From a virus, in UHGV virus genome UHGV-1436539: 8,437 nucleotides of DNA. The stretch is one strand, 5' to 3'. Numbering within the stretch: the stretch's first letter is position 1; each line of letters begins with the position of its first letter. Below, in pieces: positions 141-8,437 of the stretch. Under the pieces are notes generated by a model, which worked only from the letters and a program-made list of their open reading frames with translations, did no database searches and had not been told where the DNA came from. Position numbers and translations under genes: made by a program.

Positions 141-173
141 AGTGCGCATAATGTACGACTCGTTATGTTGAAA
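141..173 (+). other. Degenerate dif-like XerCD site at the left prophage junction, with expanded central region
   Basis: AGTGCGCATAA-TGTACGACTCG-TTATGTTGAAA. The XerC arm and the first 4 central nt match the canonical dif at 8385-8412 and the XerD arm matches 9/11, but the central region is 11 nt instead of 6. Confidence 0.7.
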
Positions 174-207
174 AGGCCGCTGCGAAAATCGAATCCCGCA
201 GCGGCCT
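174..207. terminator. GC-rich stem-loop, putative (bidirectional) intrinsic terminator downstream of the minus-strand CDS 240-1502; alternatively part of the phage att structure
   Basis: Perfect 11-bp inverted repeat AGGCCGCTGCG (174-184) / CGCAGCGGCCT (197-207) with a 12-nt loop. Only a 3-nt T tract follows on either strand, so terminator function is uncertain. Confidence 0.45.
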
Positions 208-239
208 CTTTAGCATAACGTCATTGTGCGAACCAATAA

Positions 240-1502
240 TTATCCCTCTATTATATTTTCCCTTTCCAATACCTCACGAATTTGTTGGAATACAGCACTT
301 ATATTCCCTTTAGGGAATCTTATTTGCCCTAATCCATTTATGTTGGAGAACTCTTCACATCCGTCTTCAAGAAGAATGATTGCCCGTTCAAAGCCCAGCT
401 TACCTTGAAAAAGTCCTGCTTCATGTATGACATTCATTCTTGCTTGGACTTTTCCTTCTTGAGTTTCATCTTCGGCAGTCATCAAAATAAAGGCAAATGC
501 AGCCTGCTCTAACATTTGATTAAGCCTTGTTATGTTTGTCACCCCGGCAATTGATACTCTATTAAATTCATCATAGGGTTGATGCAATTTATCTTTTATG
601 AAATCTTTAAGTTCAAGCCAAAGCTTTGATTTCCCATGACCAATAAATATATTTATTCCCGCATCTTTTTCACGCATCATCTTCCCCTCTAAGTTATTGA
701 TATGCTTGTATAATTTATCAATAAGTTTTTGTAGTTCATTACAAGATGAGTATGCACCCATAACTTCTGCAACTCGAACCCTGAGATTAATGTGTGGTGG
801 TACTCGTATTCCTTCTTGTAATGCCATGTTATCAGAGCTGGTTACTTGTTTTGGAAGGAAAAGTGACAGAATTTGTTTTTCGGATAAGATTTTGCTGTTT
901 TCAATTTTAGATACTAAGTCTTCTAAAAATTTATCTTCAGGTGGAAGGCTTTTTTTCTGTGCATAATATAATGATAAAGCGTCACTTTTTAAATCGTTAA
1001 ATATTGAATTTACCTCATTTGCTTTTTTAATCTCTTCCAATAAATCTTCTTTAGTTAAGTCACACTTATTTAATATATAATCAGTTATTTGTTCTGGATC
1101 ATATTCTACCCAATCACCTATACTTTTCATTCCCTCGGTTAAATATCCACCCATATTTTGAAATGGGCTGTTAAATCCCCAATCCTTGTTAAACACCGCC
1201 CCAGTCGGAGGTTTTTGCAGGCCATTGTAATAGACCCTTGATTGATAGCCTATAAATGAACCTGACCAAGATTCATCTAGTTTACTGGTTAACGTTAAAA
1301 CTGATGAAAGTTTGCTCACATCATAGTTACTTAGCTTCTTTAACTTATCCATTAAATCAAGGTATTGATTTGCGCTCACTGTGTAATCTCCAAGCCTAAA
1401 ATTTGCACAATTTAAAACGTGCAGTGTAGGTAATACTGCACGTTTGTACCATTCGTGGTACTTAATCCTTTTGTTTGGAAGACATGAGATCTTCTGCTGC
1501 AT
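240..1502 (-). CDS. Two-domain protein: N-terminal domain of unknown function (~aa 1-280) plus C-terminal TIR-like (PF10137-type) putative effector domain; candidate defence or toxin effector
   Basis: Long minus-strand ORF (~420 aa from ATG at 1500-1502; the track's TTG at 1518-1520 would give 426 aa). The C-terminal region (plus-strand coordinates ~306-659) has the motif series IFIGHGKS ... AFAFILMTAEDE ... ARMNVIHEAGLFQGKLGFERAIILLEDG, which matches my recollection of the TIR-like family consensus (FIVHGHD ... FAVVLLTPDD ... RxNVIFELGYFxGKLGRxRV). No strong SD at any candidate start, so the start is uncertain. Confidence 0.6.
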   Translation of the reverse strand: MQQKISCLPNKRIKYHEWYKRAVLPTLHVLNCANFRLGDYTVSANQYLDLMDKLKKLSNYDVSKLSSVLTLTSKLDESWSGSFIGYQSRVYYNGLQKPPTGAVFNKDWGFNSPFQNMGGYLTEGMKSIGDWVEYDPEQITDYILNKCDLTKEDLLEEIKKANEVNSIFNDLKSDALSLYYAQKKSLPPEDKFLEDLVSKIENSKILSEKQILSLFLPKQVTSSDNMALQEGIRVPPHINLRVRVAEVMGAYSSCNELQKLIDKLYKHINNLEGKMMREKDAGINIFIGHGKSKLWLELKDFIKDKLHQPYDEFNRVSIAGVTNITRLNQMLEQAAFAFILMTAEDETQEGKVQARMNVIHEAGLFQGKLGFERAIILLEDGCEEFSNINGLGQIRFPKGNISAVFQQIREVLERENIIEG

Positions 1503-1644
1503 CTTTAGAGTAGTTATCAATCAGATAACCTAAAATCTCTGTCCATGTAATTGTTTTTCCTAGTTTTACACTGGCGTTTATAGCCAGTCGTTCTAGTTTC
1601 ATTTTTCTTTCTTCCGTCACGTTATAAGTCGTGCGCTTTGCCAT
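1462..1644 (-). CDS. Small (60 aa) putative ribbon-helix-helix (CopG/Arc-like) DNA-binding protein; candidate repressor or antitoxin
   Basis: ATG-initiated ORF divergent from gII. The N-terminus MAKRTTYNVTEERKMKLERLA has the basic beta-strand plus helix pattern typical of RHH proteins. It overlaps the 5' end of the downstream CDS 240-1502 (ATG at 1502) by ~40 nt, suggesting an operon. Confidence 0.5.
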   Translation of the reverse strand: MAKRTTYNVTEERKMKLERLAINASVKLGKTITWTEILGYLIDNYSKDAAEDLMSSKQKD

Positions 1645-1813
1645 TTTTTACGCTCGTTCAATGCAATATTTGAAGTGAGTATACATGCTCATGAACTCAT
1701 ATCATCCAATCCTCTTGAACTCACTAGCTCACTGGTGTAATGTTAAAACACTAATGAACTACTGAACTCATGTGTTAGTAAGTCGTCATTTTTGCAATTT
1801 TGAGGATTTATTT
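1645..1813. promoter_or_regulatory. Divergent intergenic control region between the RHH gene and gII, with clustered direct repeats (candidate operators and promoters)
   Basis: TGAACTCA occurs at 1692-1699, 1716-1723 and 1763-1770, with a variant TGAACTAC at 1755-1762, and CTCACT occurs twice in tandem at 1720-1734. Candidate sigma70 elements: TTGAAC (1715-1720), 17 bp, TAATGT (1738-1743) towards gII; TATACT on the minus strand (1678-1683) towards the RHH gene. Promoter calls are weak. Confidence 0.4.
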
Positions 1814-2866
1814 GTGATCGATTGGCTTACCGGGATTTTCCCTTGCACACACAAACCGCTTCCGGCGGGGAGTGTTGTCAGCGTTGATGCTGACGGTGCA
1901 ATTGAGTGGGAAACCGTTAAGCGACTCACTGTTCGCGGTTCGCATGAAGCAACGATGAAAGTACGATCGATAGGATCTAATGGCGAAGGTAAAGCGACAC
2001 ATTTGTACATTGATGGTAATCCGTCCAAGTTTTTGCAGGGACATTCTGTTGTTGGGTCGGATGATATACAAGGGCTCATGTTGACGGCCTATGCCAGGAT
2101 TTTATCCTTATTGAATATTCCTCATGATTTAGCGTCTTATAAAGCCGTTATGGCCGGTCAGTATAAAATTTCTCGTGTTGACATTAATTACATGTATTCA
2201 TTATCTACGCTGGAAAATGTCAGATCATGGCTTTATGCCGCCGAATTTAAAGCTAAAACACGCCATGGTCGCGCATGTGGGAAAGGCGGTACAGTTTATT
2301 TAGGTAAAAACTCCCGTCGATGGAGTCTGAAATTTTATTCAAAATATGATGAACATGTTTCGGGTAAAAAAGGGCACCAGATAGCCGAAGAGTTTGTACG
2401 AGCCGGGTTACTGGACTGGACGAAAGATAAATTACGTATTGAATTAACATTAAGAACAACTGAGCTTATTGATTTAAATTTAACGCTTGGCGCTAACTGG
2501 AATATGAAAACACCACGTAAATTATTCTCTGAATATGTAGGGAGAATAGAAATGAATCAGAATGCTATTTTAAGTGATGAAAAAATAACGAAACTGCCAA
2601 GAAAAATACAGTCAACTTATTTACTTTGGAAACAAGGGGCTAACATGAAAGAAATGTTACCTCATAACACTTTTTATCGCCATAGAAGAGAGTTGCTTTC
2701 GTTCGGTATCGATATTAATTTCTATTGTGATTCACCAGACTCTAATAACGTTGTTCCGCTAATAAGAACGCTGGAAGCCAAGCCAGCGGAAATCCCCTTA
2801 TGGATTTATGAGAAAGGTTTTATTTTCGATTACAACCGTATTTCGCACGCCAGTAGCTGGCATTAA
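1814..2866 (+). CDS. gII: Replication initiation protein pII (rolling-circle nicking protein, Phage_CRI family)
   Basis: The segment VRGSHEATMKVRSIGSNG...HLYIDGNPSKFLQGHSVVGSDD resembles Ff pII/RstA-type initiators. GTG at 1814 is preceded by SD GAGGA (1802-1806) with a 7-nt spacer and gives an MID... N-terminus like Ff pII; the in-frame GTG at 1772 has no SD. Confidence 0.8.
   Translation: MIDWLTGIFPCTHKPLPAGSVVSVDADGAIEWETVKRLTVRGSHEATMKVRSIGSNGEGKATHLYIDGNPSKFLQGHSVVGSDDIQGLMLTAYARILSLLNIPHDLASYKAVMAGQYKISRVDINYMYSLSTLENVRSWLYAAEFKAKTRHGRACGKGGTVYLGKNSRRWSLKFYSKYDEHVSGKKGHQIAEEFVRAGLLDWTKDKLRIELTLRTTELIDLNLTLGANWNMKTPRKLFSEYVGRIEMNQNAILSDEKITKLPRKIQSTYLLWKQGANMKEMLPHNTFYRHRRELLSFGIDINFYCDSPDSNNVVPLIRTLEAKPAEIPLWIYEKGFIFDYNRISHASSWH
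2552..2866 (+). CDS. gX: pX-like protein from an internal in-frame start within gII (C-terminal 104 aa of pII)
   Basis: In-frame ATG at 2552 preceded by a strong SD GGGAGA (2540-2545) with a 6-nt spacer; this mirrors the Ff gene X arrangement. An alternative in-frame ATG at 2504 lacks an SD. Confidence 0.55.
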   Translation: MNQNAILSDEKITKLPRKIQSTYLLWKQGANMKEMLPHNTFYRHRRELLSFGIDINFYCDSPDSNNVVPLIRTLEAKPAEIPLWIYEKGFIFDYNRISHASSWH

Positions 2867-3687: not shown

Positions 3688-4908
3688 ATGAAAAGGAAAA
3701 TATTAATTCTTTCCGCTGTCCTCATTTCTCCTTTTTCACATGCTGATTCATGGGAAAGCATTACTAAATCTACTTATCAAAGCTCTGCCTACGCTGAAAG
3801 TAAGCAAATAACCAATCAGGATGGCTCTAAGACAACGGTTTACTATATTGATGCTGCTATGCAGGCCTCCGCTTGTCAGGGTGCTAAATCCAGTGCTCAG
3901 AGTGTATTTACTCAGGTTAAACTAACTTATGAGGGTATCTGGCCTGATTCTGAATTCCGTCTTGTTTTTACTGGTGATTGTACTTACAGCGATTCACCAG
4001 GGCAGAAGGATAAATATTGGTCTTTAACGGCTTATATTGTTGGTGATATTCAGCGTTCTGTTCCTGATGCAAAACCTACTGACCCGACACCAGAAGAAAT
4101 TTGCGAAGCGAAGCCGCCAGAAGAAGGTGTATTTAATAATGTCGATTCATATGATGGTGGTCGCTATATCTACTATAACGGCTGTGAATATGAGGCTACT
4201 GGTGTCATTGTTTGTCAGAATGATGGTACTGTTTGTGCTGCTACATGGAAGCCTACAGGGAGCGTAGCAGATCCATCTGATAAACCTTCAACTCCTCAAA
4301 ATGGCGGTGGTGAATCTGGCGGTGGTGAATCTGGCGGCGGTGAATCCGGTGGCGGTAGTTCTGGCGGTGGTTCCAGTGGTTCCAGTCTTTCTAAAGGTGA
4401 TATTCAGACTGCTATCGAAGGTGCTTCACCCAAAATAGCCAGCGATATTCATGATAAATTAACAGAGAAAGATACATCCTCAGATGATAAAAAATATGCT
4501 GATGAACAGACAAATAATAATATATTACGTCTGGATGATTCCTTAAATAACCTTACCCGTGGAGCGGGGCGTTTTGCTGACCCTTCTGGCGGTGATTCAC
4601 GCTATGGAAAGGGCGATTCTGAACTAGATTCTGCTTCAACTTTGGCAGATTCCGAATTAGGGATAGCAAAAGATTCGCATGGTGCTTTATGGGAAGCATT
4701 TTTAAATAAAGATGCTATGCTTCCTAACTTACCCAATGGTAACGGCTGCTCTGATTTTATTATTTTCCCCGGGGAGGTTTATCAGATTGATATTGGTTGC
4801 GATAAATTACTGACTATTAAAGATGTTCTTTCATGGGTTTTTTATTGCCTTACGTTCTGGTATGTCTTTACTTCTTTAACTTCATTGCTTCGTAAAGGGG
4901 GTGAGTGA
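3688..4908 (+). CDS. gIII: Attachment/adsorption protein pIII (406 aa) with signal peptide, N-terminal putative receptor-binding domain, N1-like TolA-binding domain, Gly-rich linker and C-terminal membrane anchor
   Basis: Signal peptide [47 protein letters not shown] resembles the Ff N1 segment YANYEGCLWNATGVVVCTGDETQCYGTW. Linker (GGGES)3(GGGSS) and a hydrophobic C-terminus are present. The ATG at 3688 is chosen over the upstream alternative start of the track ORF, which overlaps gVIII. Confidence 0.9.
4303..4386 (+). repeat. Tandem 15-bp coding repeats (GGCGGTGGTGAATCT-like, about five and a half units) encoding the Gly/Ser/Glu-rich pIII linker
   Basis: Near-identical 15-nt units are directly visible, translating to [25 protein letters not shown]. 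Confidence 0.85.
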
Positions 4909-6351: not shown

Positions 6352-7617
6352 ATGCGCTCTTTTATTATTGCTTTTTTATTTACCTGTTCATTCTGCGTTT
6401 CTGCTGAAACTGTTAATTTAAATAATTCGTCTGTTCGCTCATTTGTTCAGTGGTATTCGTCAAAAACTGGCAAGCCTGTTATTGTTAATCCTGATGTTAA
6501 AGGGAACGTAACCGTATTTAATGCTGATGTTAACCCAACAAATATTGATGATTTCTTTAAGTCTGTTCTCAATGCTAACGGGTTTGTTATGCTTTCCGGT
6601 AATCCTGCGGTTGTCTCTTTGCCGTCTAAATTACCGTCACAAATGGCTTCTGACTCCGGCGACTCTGATAATCAGTCTTATGATTCTTTTCCTTCTGAGC
6701 CATCTTACCAGCCAGTACCTGTGGCGCTTACGGTCAGAAATTTTAAGCTGACAAAAGTTAGATCGTCCGATGTTCAGCAACTGATTAAAATTTATCTTGA
6801 TTCTAATGGTGGTGGTAATGTCGTGGATTATCCAGGCAATAACTCGCTGATTGTTTCTGCGCCTGACGAGCTGCTGCCGGTTCTGTCCGATTTTATCAAT
6901 TCTGTGGATGTTGCCCGCGATCAGGTTCTCATTCAGTCGCTGATGTTTGAAACCAGCTTGTCTGATGGCGTTGATTTATCGTTTGCGGCAGGTTCTGCAT
7001 CCGGTCATAAGGTTGCGGGGGGCTTTAATACTTCTGCACTGGGTAGCGCTCTTTCTACGGCGGGCGGTTCTTTTGGTATTTTTGATGGTAACGTGTTGGC
7101 GCTGTCTCTGCGTGCTGTCCAGAGTAATTCACGCTCTAAGGTGATTTCAACGCCGCGTATTCTTACTCAGTCTGGTCAGACTGGTTACATTTCCGTAGGT
7201 AAGAATGTGCCGTTTATCACCGGAAAGGTAACGGGCGAATCTGCCGGCGTAAATAATCCGTTTCAGACTATCGAGCGTCATGATGTTGGCGTTTCTCTCA
7301 AGGTAACGCCTGTTGTCATGGGTAACGGGCAACTAGTTCTGACTATCGACACTCGCGCTGATTCAATCAGCAATGATGATCAGGCATCCGATATTATTAC
7401 TAATCAGCGCCAGATTCAGACGACAGTCCAGATTAAGGATGGTCAGACGTTGTTATTGGGGGGGCTTATCGATTCATCGTTCAGCAATGCCGAGCGTTCA
7501 GTTCCAGTTATAAGTAAAATTCCTCTTATAGGCTGGATGTTCAGTAGCAAGGCAGACAGCAATGAACAGCGTATTATGTATATTTTGCTTACAGCACATA
7601 TCATTCGTCCACTTTGA
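6352..7617 (+). CDS. gIV: Outer-membrane secretin pIV (421 aa) for phage extrusion
   Basis: Signal peptide MRSFIIAFLFTCSFCVSA. Extensive similarity to Ff pIV, including the C-terminal secretin block VPFITGKVTGESAGVNNPFQTIER, QTLLLGGL and SKIPLIG. ATG at 6352 with SD AGGAG; the upstream track start overlaps gI and is rejected. Confidence 0.95.
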   Translation: MRSFIIAFLFTCSFCVSAETVNLNNSSVRSFVQWYSSKTGKPVIVNPDVKGNVTVFNADVNPTNIDDFFKSVLNANGFVMLSGNPAVVSLPSKLPSQMASDSGDSDNQSYDSFPSEPSYQPVPVALTVRNFKLTKVRSSDVQQLIKIYLDSNGGGNVVDYPGNNSLIVSAPDELLPVLSDFINSVDVARDQVLIQSLMFETSLSDGVDLSFAAGSASGHKVAGGFNTSALGSALSTAGGSFGIFDGNVLALSLRAVQSNSRSKVISTPRILTQSGQTGYISVGKNVPFITGKVTGESAGVNNPFQTIERHDVGVSLKVTPVVMGNGQLVLTIDTRADSISNDDQASDIITNQRQIQTTVQIKDGQTLLLGGLIDSSFSNAERSVPVISKIPLIGWMFSSKADSNEQRIMYILLTAHIIRPL

Positions 7618-7658
7618 TGGATAGCGGGTAGGTGCGTGAGCCCTGCTCGCTATCCATC
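7616..7658 (+). other. Stable hairpin immediately after gIV: candidate packaging signal or gIV transcript terminator structure
   Basis: Perfect 11-bp inverted repeat GATGGATAGCG (7616-7626) / CGCTATCCATC (7648-7658) with a ~21-nt loop and no following T tract. In Ff phages the packaging-signal hairpin lies directly after gene IV. Confidence 0.4.
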
Positions 7659-7686
7659 AAATGGACATTATTGATTGGGGTAACTA

Positions 7687-7995
7687 ATGGATTCTTATGG
7701 GATTTTATCTGCTCTGGCAGAACGAACGATTACAGCGGAAGAAGCAAAAACAATGACACTTGCAGCCAGAAGTTCTTCGGCTCAGGTAAATGAAGCATCA
7801 CTTGCTCTGTTACTGATTGATAATACTCTGGATGCGATCAAAGCAGCTGCCAGTGAAGGGAAAGGATACACTCTACTTCCTTCTTATGAGATTTCTGTAA
7901 AAGCCATTGATTTAGCAGAAGAATTTTTAAGGAAACAATGCGGCTATGTTATTGATAACCAGAATGGCGTAAGGACGGTCTATTGGTTTATATGA
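7687..7995 (+). CDS. Hypothetical protein (102 aa), accessory gene in the prophage right arm
   Basis: ATG-initiated ORF with a weak SD (GGGG) in the otherwise non-coding stretch between gIV and the right dif. I recognise no family. Confidence 0.45.
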   Translation: MDSYGILSALAERTITAEEAKTMTLAARSSSAQVNEASLALLLIDNTLDAIKAAASEGKGYTLLPSYEISVKAIDLAEEFLRKQCGYVIDNQNGVRTVYWFI

Positions 7996-8112: not shown

Positions 8113-8346
8113 ATGCAATTTTTCACATCCAGCGATACTGTAATGTTATGTGCGAAGACCTGCGATCGCTGTGGTCGCCATGCGAAGACGGTGGTAGATG
8201 ACATTGAGTTCAATGAGTTTCTGTCTGTTAATCACTTAGCTGGATACGGTTCAATTTTTGGTGACAGTAATCGCTTAAAACTAGATTTATGCCAACATTG
8301 CCTGAAAGACGTCCTGGGCCAGTGGATTACGGTCTGTGACCAATGA
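8113..8346 (+). CDS. Hypothetical small Cys-rich protein (77 aa), putative zinc ribbon
   Basis: Strong SD GAGGAG (8102-8107) 5 nt before the ATG. Cys pattern C-x3-C-x2-C ... C-x2-C (CAKTCDRCG ... CQHC). Function unknown. Confidence 0.55.
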   Translation: MQFFTSSDTVMLCAKTCDRCGRHAKTVVDDIEFNEFLSVNHLAGYGSIFGDSNRLKLDLCQHCLKDVLGQWITVCDQ

Positions 8347-8384: not shown

Positions 8385-8412
8385 GGTGCGCATAATGTAT
8401 ATTATGTTAAAT
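8385..8412 (+). other. dif: Canonical dif site (XerCD chromosome-dimer resolution site) forming the right prophage junction
   Basis: Exact match to the E. coli dif 28-mer GGTGCGCATAA-TGTATA-TTATGTTAAAT as I know it. Confidence 0.85.
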
Positions 8413-8437
8413 TGAGTGTATGTGCGTAAGCAAACCT

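Follow-up and report, generated by a model that had tools for sequence, protein, structure and literature searches.

The 8,437-nucleotide stretch analysed here over its whole length (the window; UHGV virus genome UHGV-1436539, from a human-gut metagenome scaffold, ENA ERZ28661258, scaffold_3749) contains one complete inovirus (filamentous) prophage with short host flanks. The prophage is of the Ypfphi/CUS-1 type and is integrated by XerCD at the dif site of a Klebsiella chromosome. Near its left end lie two minus-strand open reading frames (ORFs), 240-1520 and 1462-1644, divergent from gII, just as a preliminary description of the sequence had reported: the first contains the gene for a protein that ends in a TIR domain, the second encodes a protein of 60 amino acids (aa). 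That description joined them into a dedicated two-gene module; the evidence below separates them and favours, with somewhat better than even confidence, a single-gene prophage cargo (a "moron") encoding a sensor-TIR NADase that serves in defence. Feature positions are collected in Table 1.

Where does the TIR gene begin? The GTG at 1379 follows a GGAG placed 8 nt upstream, and homologues start in register with it ("MSIS.EL"). Gene callers predict the 379-aa protein from this codon or a 370-aa protein from ATG 1352, never the 426 aa that result from an upstream TTG; the 379-aa protein is identical to WP_312029837.1, a "nucleotide-binding protein" of the Klebsiella pneumoniae complex. The 426-aa ORF (240-1520) is rejected as an over-extension by its first 42-47 codons: codons 1-42 are absent from homologues and are part of the conserved phage backbone, because from 1394-1398 onward the sequence is again homologous to E. 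coli prophages that carry other cargo. In three such prophages (L001-L003) the false-extension frame stops 8-13 codons past the junction, and in prophages with other cargo each cargo gene has its own ribosome-binding site and start. The backbone ORF at 1394-1520 matches only positions 1-36 of phrog_6875 (E 1.2e-18) and probably reflects an erroneous annotation that has spread through phage records, a real short peptide being the alternative. With the start at 1379 there is therefore no overlap with the 60-aa gene, only an 82-bp spacer, and the N-terminal domain measures about 240 aa; the 426-aa length and the overlap given earlier were products of the extension to the TTG. A dN/dS (nonsynonymous over synonymous change) of 0.07-0.31 against near-identical copies, from small counts, indicates purifying selection.

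The C-terminal part is a TIR domain of the PF10137 type, as its motifs had led the preliminary description to propose. IFIGHGKS, AFAFILMTAEDE and ARMNVIHEAGLFQGKLGFERAIILLEDG are all present in the translation, and the match to PF10137 (CAP12-PCTIR_TIR), confirmed on the 379-aa form, covers profile positions 1-117 of 119 with E 4.8e-23 and 81.9 bits, far above the gathering cut-off of 24.7. The PADLOC models for the CBASS TIR effector, PycTIR and PDC-S35 also match; PDB sequence matches are to Cap12 TIR-STING chains only; and the fold is that of TIR domains (flavodoxin-like), with Cap12 TIR domains as the best structure matches. The GHG and NV.HE.GLFQG motifs are invariant and can be aligned with those of Cap12, and E320 is invariant in 42 homologues. 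In pairwise alignments (9lmq and 7un8), E320 falls on the Glu of RDNVVFEFGLFLG (NVVFEFGLFLG) in Cap12 TIR-STING, which we take to be the catalytic residue of SfSTING/Cap12. By analogy with these proteins, the domain is predicted to be an NADase.

What might control it? The N-terminal domain has no Pfam model, and the protein has no Pfam match outside the TIR domain; the earlier description could not assign this region, and no library does so, although the ~280 aa then allotted to it shrink to about 240. The domain is recognised by its own conserved motifs, SWSGS.(I/L)GY.SRVYY, PP.GA.F..(E/D)WG, GDW.EY, SxD and PPH (in short, SWSGSWLGYHSRVYY...PPxGAxFSxEWG...PPH), and it ends in a 45-residue helix that leads into the TIR domain. 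Searched alone against 1.84 billion representatives, it yields 622 clusters at 50% identity, and its partners vary. Of the proteins found with this domain, 106 are at least 300 aa long; 69 of these have a PF10137 TIR domain and two a TIR_2 domain; a DpnII/MboI restriction-endonuclease domain, Hypoth_Ymh, a Ser/Thr kinase (Pkinase) and a GGDEF/Cas10-palm domain are found once each; six proteins end in hydrophobic transmembrane tails; and the remainder have C-termini without assignment, for which PADLOC returned no matches. This pattern, one constant domain with toxic effectors that can be exchanged, is that of sensor-effector immune proteins. Because the N-terminal domain is joined to such effectors, we infer that it is the sensing or regulatory part of the protein; the pattern suggests a sensor with swappable effectors.

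The combination found in the window is common rather than a unique fusion, as it had first seemed: there are more than 5,800 hits of the full-length type, a number capped by the 8,000 candidates scored. The full-length homologues listed are mostly 365-379 aa long, share 45-56% identity and are spread over several phyla (Enterobacterales, Vibrio, Methylomonas, Sulfurovum, Cloacimonetes). Some are stand-alone genes in Pectobacterium, Methylomonas and Morganella chromosomes. Other settings resemble defence islands: an integrase island with genes for a reverse transcriptase with SLATT, HipBA and HNH proteins, the vicinity of ScoMcrA-type HNH genes or of a SEFIR/TIR_2 protein, and, on plasmids, the company of TIR, KAP NTPase and AIPR genes. 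A structural search of BFVD gave no comparable viral protein at E <= 1e-3, and in 50,697 phage records tblastn matched a Microcystis phage alone, partially and at the level of the TIR domain.

Table 1. Features of the prophage discussed in the text (positions in the window)
Feature	Position	Strand	Remarks
TIR gene (putative sensor-TIR protein, 379 aa)	240-1379	-	GTG start; stop codon 240-242
CAP12/PycTIR-type TIR domain, residues 243-355	315-653	-	
Invariant Glu codon, E320 (379-aa numbering)	420-422	-	in NVIHEAGLFQG
N-terminal domain, residues 1-240	660-1379	-	mostly helical, with conserved loop/strand core
False N-terminal extension (backbone ORF)	1394-1520	-	MITTLKMQQKISC...HVL / MITTLKMQQKISCLPNKRIKYHEWYKRAVLPTLHVL...; other frame, overlaps 3' end of 60-aa gene
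Spacer, 82 bp	1380-1461	-	mostly backbone; two hairpins
Variable cargo slot	about 238-1393		holds the TIR gene alone; 34.6% GC
GC-rich 17-bp stem-loop, then UUUUC	176-219	-	directly 3' of TIR stop codon; conserved backbone
60-aa gene	1462-1644	-	phrog_2503; rstR position, divergent from gII
Divergent control region, 127 bp	1645-1771		three exact TGAGTTCA/TGAACTCA repeats and a sigma-70-like site
gII	1772-2866		divergent from 60-aa and TIR genes; Pfam Phage_CRI and G2P_X_C
dif-like hybrid site, AGTGCGCATAA-TGTACGACTCG-TTATGTTGAAA	141-173		left prophage junction; read from sequence
attP-type forked hairpin, CTXphi-like	144-234	+	144-170 pairs with inverted dif-like half 212-234
Two small conserved ORFs beside attR	7687-7995, 8113-8346		phrog_4115 and phrog_5435 matches
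Intact E. coli-type dif, perfect 28 bp, GGTGCGCATAATGTATATTATGTTAAAT	8386-8413		right junction (attR); read from sequence

The TIR gene fills a slot whose content changes from one prophage to the next. Homology to E. coli prophages that carry Doc or a set of three ORFs breaks off at about 236-238 and at 1393-1398; one border consists of the attP arm and the GC-rich stem-loop, the other of the conserved hairpin 3' of the 60-aa gene. The impression that this segment is richer in A and T than the phage core is borne out by the numbers: the cargo has 34.6% GC and the backbone 40.8%, and even the lowest same-size backbone window has 36.2%. Its placing in the variable region of a filamentous prophage, divergent from gII and by the repressor position, was likewise correct and can be made precise: this is the attL/attP-proximal slot of a dif-integrating inovirus. 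Downstream of the same 60-aa gene, E. coli and Salmonella prophages carry at least eight unrelated cargo sets: a Fic/Doc toxin gene with no antitoxin annotated alongside; sets of proteins of 140+91+159, 140+155+123, 46+91+230 and 140+94+262 aa; a 140-aa protein with a CxxC "mobilome" protein and a 63-aa protein; a PD-(D/E)XK nuclease; and an STM4504-family protein. Many of these sets start with a conserved 140-aa predicted membrane protein, and most of their proteins have no family assignment. When ten alternative cargo proteins were compared with PADLOC and Pfam models, only Fic/Doc (PDC-S23-like) and a zinc-ribbon protein, the latter with weak matches, were recognised.

Two further settings show how far this cargo travels. 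A Salmonella homologue with 53% identity occupies the equivalent slot of a distinct inovirus lineage, behind two HTH_3 regulators. In that lineage (L027/L028, 4944-7140) gV is of the PF02303 type, and the TIR homologue lies beside the Salmonella dif flank. Copies with 97-99% identity are present on conjugative IncF plasmids (the IncFII plasmid contigs L004-L006, and K. variicola pKGB1a, 9001-10248); they correspond exactly to window positions 145-1471, are bounded by insertion sequence (IS) fragments, and retain the dif-like site and the TIR gene in intact form, while all that is left of the 60-aa gene is its final 10 nt. They were considered as a sign of independent mobility of the TIR gene, an idea rejected on account of the shared dif-like site and 60-aa gene tip; since they share the segment 145-1471, they represent what IS truncation has left of the phage arm. 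These copies suggest that the phage once integrated into plasmids through Xer and then decayed there. Their neighbours include further defence-like genes, for a second PF10137 protein, a KAP NTPase, AIPR, TPR+TIR, TIR and DUF4231 proteins. The slot exchanges toxin-like and defence-like genes among E. coli, Salmonella and Klebsiella, and leaves remnants on IncF plasmids.

The 60-aa gene, by comparison, is a phage backbone gene, independent of the TIR gene. It is present in all related prophages whatever the cargo and is conserved across Enterobacterales prophages; its products form a narrow family, mostly above 90% identity, and the E. coli form, WP_001335098.1 (98% identical, listed in about 16,000 index blocks), is a close relative. 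In Ypfphi, the putative repressor YPO2273 stands at the same position (PMC4266046), and the 60-aa protein is putatively the phage's own regulator and not a partner of the TIR protein. The ribbon-helix-helix (RHH) label first given to it finds no backing in sequence or structure searches: neither the protein nor 14 relatives match Pfam at E <= 10, phmmer finds no PDB sequence at E <= 10, and the best Foldseek hit of the AlphaFold2 monomer in the PDB has E 4.4. The predicted monomer, an extended N-terminus followed by two helices, has a topology compatible with RHH. Between this gene and gII lie exact TGAACTCA repeats at 1692-1699, 1716-1723 and 1763-1770, three of the four matches that the window contains where 0.33 would be expected; they are candidate operators, or sites related to the origin, on which the phage regulator or gII could act. 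A near-copy of the repeat lies at 1751-1760.

How would a cargo gene in this slot be transcribed? The sole promoter predicted for the regulator and the cargo is a sigma-70-like site on the minus strand (1705-1678), 5' of the 60-aa gene. The 60-aa and TIR genes may be co-transcribed: both lie on the minus strand, and the gap of 82 bp that separates them has no predicted promoter. The spacer sequence is conserved in L001-L003 whatever the cargo and contains a hairpin with a perfect 11-bp stem (1415-1425/1435-1445, 100% complementary, z -3.65); UUU closes its 3' arm, and UAAAUU, a short tail of mixed T and A, comes next. This hairpin is absent from the list given by the terminator scan; it may be an attenuator or a leaky terminator ahead of the cargo. 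At the other end, the stem-loop directly behind the TIR gene (RNA fold -35.1 kcal/mol, z -5.8), part of a block (142-237) common to prophages with other cargo, is probably the terminator of the cargo transcript. Judging from these signals, whatever the slot contains appears to receive its promoter, a possible attenuator and its terminator from the backbone.

The rest of the prophage follows the canonical inovirus order, gII, gV, gVII, gVIII, gIII, gVI, gI/Zot and the gIV secretin; in an identical prophage, Pfam calls comprise Putative_G5P, Inovirus_G7P_2, Phage_coatGP8, G3P_pilus-bind, DUF5455, Zot and Secretin. With E. coli prophages of the same organisation, the backbone shares 96-97% identity, and it has a match in 804 of 5,426 complete genomes; the TIR cargo is absent from the complete E. 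coli genomes. The TIR-carrying prophage itself recurs in at least three contigs that differ in flanks or chromosomal context, with 99.7-99.8% identity across 8.3 kb. Homology to E. coli prophages ends at 136-142 on the left, and homology to related prophages ends at 8412-8422 on the right. The left junction site consists of XerC-arm-like and XerD-arm-like halves that flank an enlarged central region, and its first 14 nt equal the dif core at 8386-8399. It overlaps the forked hairpin, a backbone element that surrounds a GC-rich inner hairpin and forms the left border of the slot; as single-stranded DNA, positions 130-240 fold with -26.8 kcal/mol (z -6.1; none of 200 shuffles folds equally well). 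The attP of Ypfphi contains a pair of inverted XerC/XerD binding sites, and integration of Ypfphi and CUS-1 restores an intact dif at the 3' end (PMC4266046).

Several features outside the slot deserve mention. The small ORFs beside attR occupy the position of YPO2280a and YPO2281 described in the Ypfphi review; the 77-aa protein among them has CxxC...CxxC spacing and weak zinc-ribbon matches. In a host with an identical prophage, a 426-aa ORF without a Pfam match (L011, 236-1516) lies just past attR, at the place where the 77-aa gene is called in other loci; that its length equals that of the over-extended ORF is a coincidence. Directly after gIV, a long near-perfect hairpin (7607-7666) folds as single-stranded DNA with -24.5 kcal/mol (z -7.7). 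In Ff phages the packaging-signal hairpin is located just after gIV, and the hairpin seen here has the same position. In gIII, whose product varies from 401 to 435 aa among related prophages, positions 4301-4400 encode a glycine/serine-rich repeat typical of flexible linkers in inovirus pIII attachment proteins.

TIR NADases are established abortive-infection effectors, and a defence role for the cargo protein would take the following course. Read-through from the regulator promoter across the conserved hairpin would supply a low level of protein in the lysogen, and this protein would stay inactive until its N-terminal domain detects an infection cue. The cue would be a phage component or perturbation, because there is no cyclase to provide a second messenger. 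Assembly of the TIR domains would follow, with hydrolysis of NAD+ or a related nucleotide; this would stop growth of the infected cell, and such abortive infection would protect the clonal population together with the prophage. Five observations weigh against this account. No promoter is predicted directly upstream of the TIR gene and a hairpin precedes it, which leaves expression in the lysogen in doubt; several family members lie among housekeeping genes; the PADLOC matches are limited to the TIR part; most other cargos of the slot, judged from the ten proteins compared with PADLOC and Pfam, have no recognisable defence genes; and the searchable literature holds no enzymatic or phage-challenge data on this architecture.

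A bolder proposal couples the N-terminal domain and the slot: the former would be an undescribed infection sensor that is linked to interchangeable suicide effectors (PF10137 TIR, TIR_2, DpnII-type nuclease, Ymh, kinase, GGDEF and membrane-spanning tails), and the attP-proximal slot of Ypfphi/CUS-1-type and related dif-integrating inoviruses would be a hotspot for defence or competition genes. We hold this tentatively and think it has appreciably less than an even chance; that the slot is a defence hotspot is not established, because most of the alternative cargos are not recognisable defence genes. If the proposal is true, filamentous phages, which persist chronically and do not lyse the cell, equip their hosts to resist lytic phages.

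Could the protein instead serve the phage? It might exclude superinfecting or competing filamentous phages or dif-competing IMEXs (integrative mobile elements exploiting Xer), or kill cells that lose or over-induce the prophage. Two divergent family members (53% identity) sit in the same attP-proximal slot of two inovirus lineages, the gene lies downstream of the phage regulator and may be under its control, and Ypfphi lysogens are partially immune to superinfection (PMC4266046). Most family members, however, are found outside inoviruses, which makes such a role unlikely; the protein would, moreover, still be a sensor-TIR abortive system, one that differs from the defence protein proposed above only in target and beneficiary.

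Slightly less probable still is a non-immune nucleotide enzyme or regulator, that is, an N-glycosidase, an enzyme of the 2-deoxyribosyltransferase (NDT-like) type or a nucleotide-binding regulator, in keeping with the database name "nucleotide-binding protein". The best sequence and structure matches are to Cap12 TIR domains; the N-terminal domain is also joined to nuclease, kinase, transmembrane and other TIR modules, a swapping typical of conflict systems and not of metabolism; and the gene is patchily distributed, located on mobile elements and low in GC.

The two-gene module envisaged in the preliminary description would make the pair a toxin-antitoxin or addiction system, in which the prophage is stabilised by an RHH-like 60-aa protein that represses the TIR toxin or neutralises it. 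The close, same-strand arrangement of the genes with no predicted promoter between them, the RHH-compatible topology of the modelled 60-aa protein and the presence, in the same slot of another prophage, of a Fic/Doc toxin gene without a separate annotated antitoxin would fit such a system, which we nonetheless consider very improbable. The 60-aa gene is conserved backbone beside at least eight unrelated cargos, and the TIR family does without it in all non-inovirus contexts examined; in another inovirus, a TIR homologue follows two HTH_3 genes instead. The plasmid copies combine an intact TIR gene with 10 nt of the 60-aa gene, a state in which an unneutralised toxin should not be tolerated. 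There is also no overlap or translational coupling, and an RHH fold is supported by none of Pfam, PDB sequences and Foldseek.

Least credible is a role in virulence or counter-defence, whereby the TIR domain would interfere with innate signalling of the host or the phage enzyme would destroy immune nucleotides of the host: CUS-1 and Ypfphi are reported to affect fitness in infection models (PMC4266046) and the host is a Klebsiella from a human gut sample, but the family is widespread in environmental, non-host-associated bacteria, the protein has no evident secretion signal or partner and a TIR domain of the Cap12/PycTIR subtype, and BFVD holds no comparable viral protein at E <= 1e-3.

Much of what meets at this locus is already known: descriptions exist of the TIR subfamily and of the prophage family with its variable attL segment, and the protein is catalogued under generic names. 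The searchable literature contains no description of the N-terminal domain and its effector-swapping family, nor any experimental test of this architecture, and it does not present the Ypfphi/CUS-1 slot as a systematic site of cargo exchange across genera, the Ypfphi review coming closest. To our knowledge, each known type of TIR NADase is triggered through a defined sensor, be it a STING, SAVED, cyclic-nucleotide-binding or NLR-like domain or the ThsB signal; if its trigger were identified, the N-terminal domain would become a further class of sensor in bacterial immunity. Filamentous prophages that integrate at dif in Enterobacterales have been noted chiefly for modest effects on virulence; they possess a defined cargo slot that is apparently expressed from the backbone and that bears on the spread of phage resistance in clinical Klebsiella and on the retention of these prophages.

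How does the TIR protein compare with known systems? Its TIR domain, PF10137, is common to Cap12 of CBASS (TIR-STING, TIR-SAVED) and to PycTIR of Pycsar, but here the domain is C-terminal, behind an unrelated 240-aa helical domain, and the gene is single and self-contained. As had been remarked before, no CD-NTase cyclase or other signalling gene is found in the prophage or its flanks (L011, L012). Pfam detects no STING or SAVED domain on the protein, and the NCBIfam Cap12 equivalogs, for which 450 bits are required, reach 35-36 with an alignment limited to the TIR part. Pycsar can be set aside on similar grounds: prophage and flanks contain no PycC cyclase, the protein has no Pfam match to a cNMP-binding domain, and the PADLOC PycTIR model is matched at profile positions 108-274 only, again the TIR part. 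For Thoeris, the slot offers no SIR2, SLOG, Macro or transmembrane partner, and no PADLOC Thoeris model is matched. Because it has no cyclase or second-messenger sensor, the system is not CBASS, Pycsar or Thoeris; by analogy, its mechanism is probably similar to that of their TIR effectors.

The best PADLOC match is to PDC-S35 (E 6.4e-15), a candidate single-gene system on which the searchable literature yielded no paper. In both, a PF10137-type TIR domain forms the C-terminal part of a single protein, but the match is confined to profile positions 83-237 of 264 and to query residues 258-403 (426-aa numbering), that is, to the TIR domain and the preceding helix; the 240-aa N-terminal domain falls outside the PDC-S35 model, and the N-terminal architectures differ.

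The prophage has the layout of Ypfphi of Yersinia pestis and CUS-1 of E. coli K1: an attL-side variable segment, a regulator in the rstR position, a divergent control region, modules for replication, morphogenesis and secretion, two attR-side ORFs, a dif site at the 3' end and inverted XerC/D-type attP sites. The likeness to these two phages is one of published organisation, nucleotide identity having been measured against the E. coli prophages. Ypfphi and CUS-1 themselves differ in the segment adjacent to attL and share a putative repressor in the rstR position and two ORFs beside attR (PMC4266046); in the window, the TIR gene takes the place of YPO2271/2272 or orf1/orf1a. As a cargo, the TIR gene resembles ctxAB of CTXphi and the defence "morons" of other prophages (e.g., P2/P4-like elements): all are accessory genes at a fixed, exchangeable position, unrelated to virion production, with atypical GC content and transcription signals apparently supplied by the backbone. 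The slot, however, is attP-proximal and on the regulator side, whereas ctxAB adjoins attR.

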